A stretch of DNA of 15,345 bases from a virus (taxonomy: Duplodnaviria > Heunggongvirae > Uroviricota > Caudoviricetes): IMG/VR virus record IMGVR_UViG_2529292919_000012; one strand, 5' to 3'. Below, in pieces: positions 13,801 through 15,345 of this stretch (its first letter is position 1; the number at the start of each line of letters is the position of its first letter). Position numbers: made by a program.

Positions 13801-15345
13801 TGGATGGGGGAGTGCTTATTTCTATGGATGGGGTACTTCTTTTTACTACGGCTTCCCATGGTGGATTGTAGGTGCAGGTGTTGATGATGTTGCCAGAAGT
13901 TTATTTTTTGCAGTTATCGTCATTGCTATATTTCTTATCGGTTGGGGTATTGGTGTTGTATTCTTTTTCGCAGTGAAAAGAAAACATTCTATGCAAGAGC
14001 TAAATGTATTTCGCCTTTATTTTGCTGTGGAATTATTGTTTGTGTCCGGCAATTATTGAGTTTTCTATATTGAGACAGAAGATTCAGGTACCTCTTTTGC
14101 TACTGTCAGCAGCGATTGCGCTGGCGGTTACAATTTCGATAAGATCTTATGGGCGATTTTTATCGGTATCATGCTTCTATGATAAGCCATTTATAAAAAA
14201 CATTTTTTTGAGATTGTGATGATTGCTTTTGTGGCATATTTTGGGCTTTTTTCATTTCTGACAGGATATTACAAACCACAGTTTAAGAAAGAATATGAAA
14301 TGATTAATTATAATGATGGTTGGTATTATGTTCTTGCTCGTTATGATAATTGTCTGGTTTTGTCTACTTCTTTCAATGCAGGTAGTAAAAGGTTTGTCAT
14401 TTATCAATCAGCACAAGATAAGAATCTTCAGGTTGATATTGTAAGGACCAGAATTTAATTGGCTGCATAAATAATATTTTAAGTTGCAAGTTGGCTATTC
14501 GTAGGAATAGAACCTTAGGCATGCTGAATGCGTTTTCTGAACATTGTTTTATAAACTGTGTCTGCTTGCTGTTGTGATCCTGCTTTTAGTGATGGTGATG
14601 ATGGATTTCACCAGCAGGATAATGTTGGTACTGACTGATGGCGCTCTGGTCTGCGGCATTGTGGTATTGCTGTGGCCGATGATGAAAGAACAGAATGAAT
14701 AATTCTTGACTTTTTTGTTTACTGTTTATTAAAAAATCAACCGCATGGTGAATCCTCCTTGGAGGGGCTAAATGATCGAGTTTTAAGGGCACGTAGCGAG
14801 TTCTGTTTGATCATTGCAGAACTTAGCGGGAGGCGCCATGCGTACATCACTAGTGTTATTCCTTTTATCATTTTCCTTGTGAGTTCTGGCTGCGCATTGC
14901 GCAGCCTTTTTTTTATGACCTGCCACTGGCAGATGGTCATCCTGTGATTTGATTCCGCTTCCGGCTTTTTAACTCTGTTCCTCTACACGGGAGAAATTCG
15001 ATGTCGATTAAACATTACGATGTTGTCAGGGCGGCGTCGCCGTCAGACCTTGCGGAAAAGCTGACACACAAACTGAAAGAGGGCTGGCAGCCATACGGCG
15101 GACCGGTTGCCATTACGCCGTACACACTGATGCAGGCGGTGGCTATTGAAGGAGAGCCACAGGTCGGCCCTTCATCTGAGCCGGATTGGTACTACGTCAT
15201 CGTACTGGCCGGGCAATCCAATGCCATGGCTTACGGTGAAGGGCTTCCGCTGCCGGATTCATACGATGCTCCGGATCCGCGCATTAAACAGCTGGCGCGC
15301 CGCAGTACAGTGACGCCGGGCGGGGCTGCCTGCAGATATAACGAT

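Follow-up and report, generated by a model that had tools for sequence, protein, structure and literature searches.

The 345 nucleotides at the 3′ end of the window, by which we mean the whole stretch of 15,345 nucleotides of viral DNA that was analyzed, very probably represent the first 115 codons of nanS-p (15001–15345), the gene for a prophage sialate O-acetylesterase, in a lambdoid E. coli prophage bearing the late-regulatory region of phage 434. The complete gene would encode a three-part enzyme of 616 amino acids that is expressed upon induction, mainly through read-through dependent on a Q82-type Q. Sequence identity, domain content, the catalytic motif and synteny, all directly observed, carry this assignment. 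The identity of the window's 3′ end as nanS-p is thereby confirmed; as such it is already known and ordinary.

The 5′ part of nanS-p and its full-length relatives

Translation of the plus strand yields a frame that starts with an ATG at 15001, remains open for 115 codons (345 bases) and runs past the window end. Its product starts MSIKHYDVVRAASPSDLAEKL... and matches PHROG 143 (E=8e-68). Direct reading of the upstream sequence reveals a ribosome-binding site, GGGAG at 14989–14993 (+), of which the GGAG portion (14990–14993) lies 7 bases before the ATG; a ribosome-binding site is annotated at the matching position in the phage 434 record. Two domains share this single reading frame. Residues 4–49 (15010–15147, +) form a DUF1737 domain (Pfam PF08410, E=1.8e-16, 60.1 bits with a cut-off of 24), while residues 60–115 (15178–15345, +) constitute the start of a SASA/SGNH catalytic domain, as phmmer, run with the window fragment alone, aligned these 56 residues to residues 17–72 of NanS/YjhS (3PT5; E=8.4e-21). 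The match of 15001–15345 to DUF1737 and NanS is far above chance. Block I of the esterase, GQSN, is located within the NanS match at residues 71–74 (15211–15222), with the Ser73 codon at 15217–15219. Gln72 and Ser73 align with Gln18 and Ser19 of NanS, which contribute to the oxyanion hole and act as the nucleophile, respectively (PMC9063846); from this alignment, we infer an 11-residue offset between the chain numbering of 3PT5 and the published NanS numbering. A preliminary description, made from the sequence alone, had pointed out both a DUF1737-like N-terminus and the GQSN esterase motif, and these searches bear it out on both counts. An NCBIfam search of five proteins gave no matches.

The window ends at codon 115; for the catalytic histidine, the C-terminal domain and the lysis genes, we had to turn to near-identical loci outside it. 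Among 5426 complete E. coli genomes, 1853 have matches to region 13500–15345, and 649 match at least 80% of it. Region 12700–15345 exhibits 99.8% DNA identity to the late region of phage 434 (OL657226), and for 3370–15345, once an insertion at 5529–7482 is set aside, the identity to prophage PP2 of EPEC E2348/69 amounts to 99.6%. The first 115 residues of phage 434 gp71 (CPT_434_71) and of the E2348/69 PP2 esterase (E2348C_RS03690; WP_000023276-type loci) are identical to the window ORF, and the DNA comprising lpxR, Q, the membrane-protein gene, tciB and PasD2 is 99.6–99.8% identical to the window in these two elements. Unlike them, the window copy carries a frameshifted membrane-protein gene upstream of nanS-p and an IS100 element elsewhere in the prophage.

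We inspected the full gene annotation in three near-identical loci (434, E2348/69 and 95NR1). In every one of them, the ORF extends to 616 amino acids, is annotated as a SASA family carbohydrate esterase and is followed by holin and endolysin genes. Pfam divides the 616-residue homologue into DUF1737, SASA and DUF6645 (the latter with E=2.8e-17). Its alignment with NanS 3PT5 (E=5e-122) places His359 opposite the catalytic His301 of NanS, and its C-terminal part matches the lectin-like jelly-roll structure of a NanS-p C-terminal domain (6YP6, E=5.8e-29). His359 is present in the 95NR1, E2348/69 and 434 loci, which are 99.8% identical over the shared DNA. The proposal of a NanS-p-type gene had been tied to the presence of an SGNH/SASA domain in the extended ORF; this domain was found in every near-identical full-length locus inspected, and it already begins within the window.

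The NanS-p protein of 933W and phi24B (L0105, z1466, vb_24B_21, gp84) is the prototype that has been characterized both biochemically and structurally. L0105 of 933W is 54% identical over the full length to the 616-residue 434-type protein; it comprises 645 rather than 616 amino acids, and has diverged more strongly in the C-terminal domain. Across the 115 residues encoded in the window, the identity to L0105 is 63%, with GQSN retained, and the 933W/phi24B proteins share with the 434 type the three-domain layout and the gene position between cargo slot and lysis genes. In the 933W/phi24B proteins, however, the DUF1737 loop bearing the Tyr42 "tooth" is 3 residues longer than in the window, and the linker between DUF1737 and SASA is 11 residues longer and contains SISSP, which the 434-type linker lacks. 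SISSP of the phi24B-type esterase has been proposed as a cleavage or autoprocessing site (bioRxiv 10.64898/2026.04.10.717836). The short DUF1737 loop and short linker encoded at 15100–15190 (+) of the window are a form common to the Stx1a-phage and JLK-2012 alleles.

Much closer is the yjhS/NanS-p protein encoded directly downstream of stx1AB in a Stx1a phage, which is 96% identical to the 434-type protein over 616 residues and agrees with it in length (616 amino acids), domains and position ahead of the holin gene. Most of the differences fall within the N-terminal 60 residues. The DNA homology of this phage to the window starts only at 15008, just inside the nanS-p coding sequence, and the slot upstream of the esterase gene is occupied by stx1AB in place of the membrane-protein gene, tciB and PasD2 of the window.

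By homology, NanS-p would remove 9-O-acetyl groups from Neu5,9Ac2 and from O-acetylated mucin sialoglycans, which may allow E. coli to take up and grow on the resulting Neu5Ac. Catalysis would probably rely on the Ser73/His359 pair, presented on an SGNH type II fold, and a role in glycan targeting has been proposed for the lectin-like jelly-roll domain at the C-terminus (DUF6645). Every nanS-p allele from EDL933 and O104:H4 that has been tested encodes an active Neu5,9Ac2 esterase, and z1466 was among the most strongly induced late genes (PMC8065619). By analogy to these tested alleles, the product of the window allele would be enzymatically active as well. Moreover, nanS-p genes also occur in non-Stx prophages (PMC10462455).

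The late region upstream of nanS-p

A Q82-family late antiterminator gene, Q, is located at 12841–13530 (+; Pfam PF06323, E=1.1e-91) and exhibits 89.5% DNA identity to Q of phage 82; PF06323 has been named as the Q82 family (PMC9388147). Overlapping the 3′ end of Q, a promoter consensus scan pinpointed a candidate late promoter PR′ (TTGCAA, 17-nt spacer, TATACT; 13514–13542) with 9/12 consensus matches, sites of this kind being no commoner in the window than in shuffled sequence. A −10-like element, TGGTATGTT, follows at 13554–13562 in the early transcribed region, so that candidate promoter and pause element together span 13514–13562 (+). Just downstream of Q, a terminator scan revealed an intrinsic terminator at 13576–13604 (+), a candidate equivalent of tR′ that is also annotated in the phage 434 record. 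The 933W record has pR′, qut and tR′ annotated at the position matching the elements at 13514–13604, and in the Q82-type phage PhiR47_2 homology to the window continues beyond the Q stop codon, to 13563. Region 13514–13604 may thus contain PR′, a σ-dependent pause element and tR′. A search of the literature for the phage 82 PR′ sequence, with which to back the promoter and pause assignment, did not retrieve it, and this assignment is therefore one that we infer. An alternative placement of PR′–tR′ at 14706–14914, which would turn 13600–14700 into a pre-promoter insertion, was rejected, as that unit is the independently mapped PasD2; it is also opposed by the Q-linked homology and by the promoter/terminator pair at the 3′ end of Q, arranged as in 933W.

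Phage 2B8, which carries a different Q, shares 98% identity with the window from 13598 onward, indicating that the Q module ends at about 13597 and that cargo starts at 13598. The DNA between this point and nanS-p corresponds in position to differing content in related phages: tRNAs and stx2AB in 933W, three minus-strand ORFs and stx1AB in the Stx1a phage, and three tRNAs, tciA and tciB in JLK-2012, while in PhiR47_2 Q is directly followed by the holin gene, without cargo and without nanS-p. These comparisons support the view that 13598–15000 is, by position, an stx-equivalent cargo slot with swappable content. The preliminary description had placed such a slot at 13600–15000, and the NanS-p-type gene between the Q/late promoter region and the lysis genes; the gene order in 933W, the Stx1a phage, JLK-2012, 434, E2348/69 and 95NR1 agrees with this position of the esterase gene, and the bounds of the slot can now be sharpened to about 13598–15000. 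The description's statement that stx-like sequence is missing likewise stands, as tblastn and blastn searches with Stx1A/B and Stx2A/B over the whole window returned only noise (best E=0.029, for a 28-residue stretch inside Q). In addition, ARAGORN detected no tRNA genes of the kind seen in 933W and JLK-2012 anywhere in the window.

The slot had further been thought to hold small unknown ORFs and a structured RNA. ORFs are indeed present, but they can be named. The first, at 13715–14458 (+), is a gene for a 247-residue multi-pass membrane protein with at least four hydrophobic segments (PHROG 1521, function unassigned). It is intact as a 744-nt coding sequence in 434, E2348/69 and 95NR1; comparison with these loci identifies the window copy as a pseudogene, broken by an additional T at 14045 that leads to a TGA at 14057, and with A6 in place of A7 near 14195. 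An A6 run is also encountered in further genomes, such as that of O145 RM8995, where the gene is annotated as frameshifted, and the length variants could reflect homopolymer slippage or plain decay. The second, at 14544–14702 (+), encodes a TciB-like small membrane protein of 52 residues (DUF3927; Pfam PF13064, E=3.4e-14; PHROG 1470 "TciB-like", E=2.5e-17), annotated as TciB in phage 434.

The structured RNA is likewise real, but it is an already published sRNA. Region 14743–14914 (+) is identical at 172 of 172 positions to 741157–741328 of E2348/69 (NC_011601), the coordinates given for PasD2 (Table S6 of PMC8550237), an sRNA that depends on Hfq, is abundant and has been confirmed by RIL-seq and northern blotting, with EcOnc13 as its EHEC homologue (PMC8550237). 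The fold of the 172-nt RNA (z-score −3.07) consists of a 5′ domain, a seed region that stays open (UGUGAG, 14877–14882) and a terminator hairpin with a U8 tract; the terminator scan placed the hairpin at 14888–14906, and hairpin and U8 tract lie 87 nt upstream of nanS-p. The Rfam model of STnc100 (RF02076) scored PasD2 at 41.4 bits (E=3.4e-6), below its gathering score of 47, and a published preprint describes PasD and STnc100 as structural relatives that constitute separate families. A putative PasD2 promoter, read from the sequence and absent from the list of the consensus scan, is found at 14706–14735 (+; TTGACT, 18-nt spacer, TAAAAA) and ends 7 nt before the mapped 5′ end. Two annotated reading frames overlap PasD2 and its terminator and are probably annotation artefacts, namely a 62-residue ORF at 14759–14947 (+), termed "putative membrane protein" in phage 434 and without a PHROG match, and a frameshifted RefSeq pseudogene on the minus strand at about 14783–15024. 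A perfect inverted repeat (ATGACC-N13-GGTCAT; 14915–14945, +) directly adjoins the PasD2 terminator on its downstream side, some 60 nt ahead of nanS-p, and might serve as an operator or form a hairpin in the RNA.

In this arrangement, nanS-p would come first among the late genes, before holin and endolysin, and would lie downstream of two intrinsic terminators, the one at 13576–13604 and that of PasD2 at 14888–14914. The region directly upstream of the gene, 14915–15000, contains no convincing promoter. Because of the two upstream terminators, the lack of a convincing promoter of its own and the holin and endolysin genes that follow it, nanS-p is most likely expressed for the most part upon prophage induction, by RNA polymerase that has been modified by the Q82-type Q and reads through from the Q-adjacent late promoter. 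Some leak-through into nanS-p from the strongly expressed PasD2 promoter may occur in lysogens.

State of the prophage and alternative readings of the gene

The remainder of the window is ordered as in a lambdoid prophage, with N and a cI-like S24 repressor on the minus strand, cII and replication genes, followed by ninB, an HNH gene, ybcO, rusA, ninH, a λ Q remnant, lpxR (−), ylcG and the Q82-family Q. The remnant of the λ-type Q comprises 29 codons at 11193–11282 (+; MRLESVAKFHSPKSPMMSDS...). An lpxR lipid A deacylase moron is found at 11408–12367 (−), after which come ylcG and the Q82-family Q (12700–13530, +); phage 434 is annotated with the same module replacement of λ Q remnant, lpxR, ylcG and Q82-family Q. 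An IS100-type element of the IS21 family (1954 bp; 5529–7482, −) contains istA (6374–7396) and istB (5595–6377) and is flanked by a 5-bp target duplication, GTTGA, at 5524–5528 and 7483–7487. It splits a toprim/DnaB-like replication gene into 4741–5544 and 7453–8580, and the prophage is therefore probably unable to replicate. Moreover, rusA (10648–11010, +) seems to be frameshifted after about codon 36, continuing as an out-of-frame stretch rich in Arg and Pro, and also contains an internal stop; an internal stop is likewise noted for rusA of E2348/69, which is annotated as a pseudogene.

Given that IS100 has inserted into the replication gene of this prophage, that its membrane-protein gene is frameshifted and that its rusA is broken, nanS-p might itself be a decayed remnant, with a truncation, a frameshift or an IS to the right of the window that prevents synthesis of the esterase. 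Close relatives indeed harbor defective copies, in O145 RM8995 (annotated as "missing C-terminus") and in phage 2B8 (split by a mobile element). However, the 345 nt show no defect and encode 115 residues that are all identical to the intact phage 434 product, the 649 E. coli genomes mentioned above match at least 80% of the region, and the full 616-residue gene is found in all three near-identical loci inspected throughout; we consider decay of the esterase gene quite unlikely. Far less probable still, to a degree that makes it negligible, is that the gene is not a phage nanS-p at all, but chromosomal nanS (yjhS) of nanCMS or a gene for a stand-alone DUF1737 protein. Residues 60–115 are close to chromosomal NanS (YjhS, 3PT5), which comprises an SGNH type II esterase core with the block I Gln-Ser and the catalytic His aligned, and most DUF1737 proteins have been reported to be single-domain (bioRxiv 10.64898/2026.04.10.717836). 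Yet chromosomal NanS aligns only from residue 60 on, covering the central catalytic region, and has no counterparts of DUF1737 or of the C-terminal domain in the alignments, whereas in the window DUF1737 and the start of the esterase are fused in a single frame. The neighbors of the window gene are Q, tciB and PasD2, not nanC or nanM, and chromosomal nanS resides in the sialic-acid-inducible nanCMS operon, as opposed to the phage late operon that houses nanS-p. The fused frame, the Pfam domains, the neighbors and the 3PT5 alignment together refute both of these identities.

A different question is what the nanS-p product is for. NanS-p might be mainly a structural component of the virion, with DUF1737 serving as a capsid anchor as in phi24B and the esterase serving the particle, by mucus adherence or receptor access, rather than the metabolism of the lysogen. 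For the homologous phi24B esterase, gp84, cryo-EM and proteomics located DUF1737 on the hexons of the capsid (bioRxiv 10.64898/2026.04.10.717836), and nanS-p is part of the late operon, the home of structural and lysis genes. However, capsid decoration has been shown only for this 933W-type podovirus with its T=9 capsid, from whose DUF1737 region that of the window differs, with the first 115 residues 69% identical, the anchor loop shorter by 3 residues and the linker devoid of SISSP. In addition, the 96%-identical NanS-p type occurs with different head modules, in the λ-like phage 434 and in the Stx1a phage with another head-gene set, which includes a 645-residue ORF annotated as a prohead protease. 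The DUF1737 variant shows no simple correlation with the capsid type, as 434-type NanS-p accompanies both λ-like and different head modules. That one allele type occurs with two head modules speaks either for a generic interaction with hexon pores or against capsid binding altogether. Finally, the literature attributes a growth benefit to lysogens to nanS-p (PMC8065619). We regard a mainly structural role as rather unlikely on balance; virion and metabolic roles of NanS-p are not mutually exclusive. That DUF1737 of the 434/Stx1a-type NanS-p tethers the esterase to capsids of siphoviral lambdoid phages, phage 434 included, is a notion drawn by analogy with phi24B that we hold to be doubtful. 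If such a tether were real, the reduced anchor loop and the SISSP-free linker would reflect adaptation to another capsid lattice or another mode of processing.

Implications for lambdoid prophages

Beyond a correct annotation, the value of recognizing a prophage sialate O-acetylesterase gene at the window end is small, and the main gain is a clean map of the late region. On this map, the Q82-type Q module is succeeded by mobile cargo comprising the membrane-protein gene, TciB and PasD2, in the place that tRNAs and stx occupy in Stx phages, and then by nanS-p, which opens the lysis end of the operon. The map also turns what had been seen as structured RNA into a published Hfq-dependent sRNA and flags this prophage copy as partly decayed. 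Should the capsid-tether reading prove true, virions of ordinary non-Stx lambdoid phages would carry a mucin-sialate-modifying enzyme. NanS-p itself is well established, in Stx as well as non-Stx lambdoid prophages, as an accessory gene that helps E. coli to exploit the O-acetylated sialic acids of mucus.
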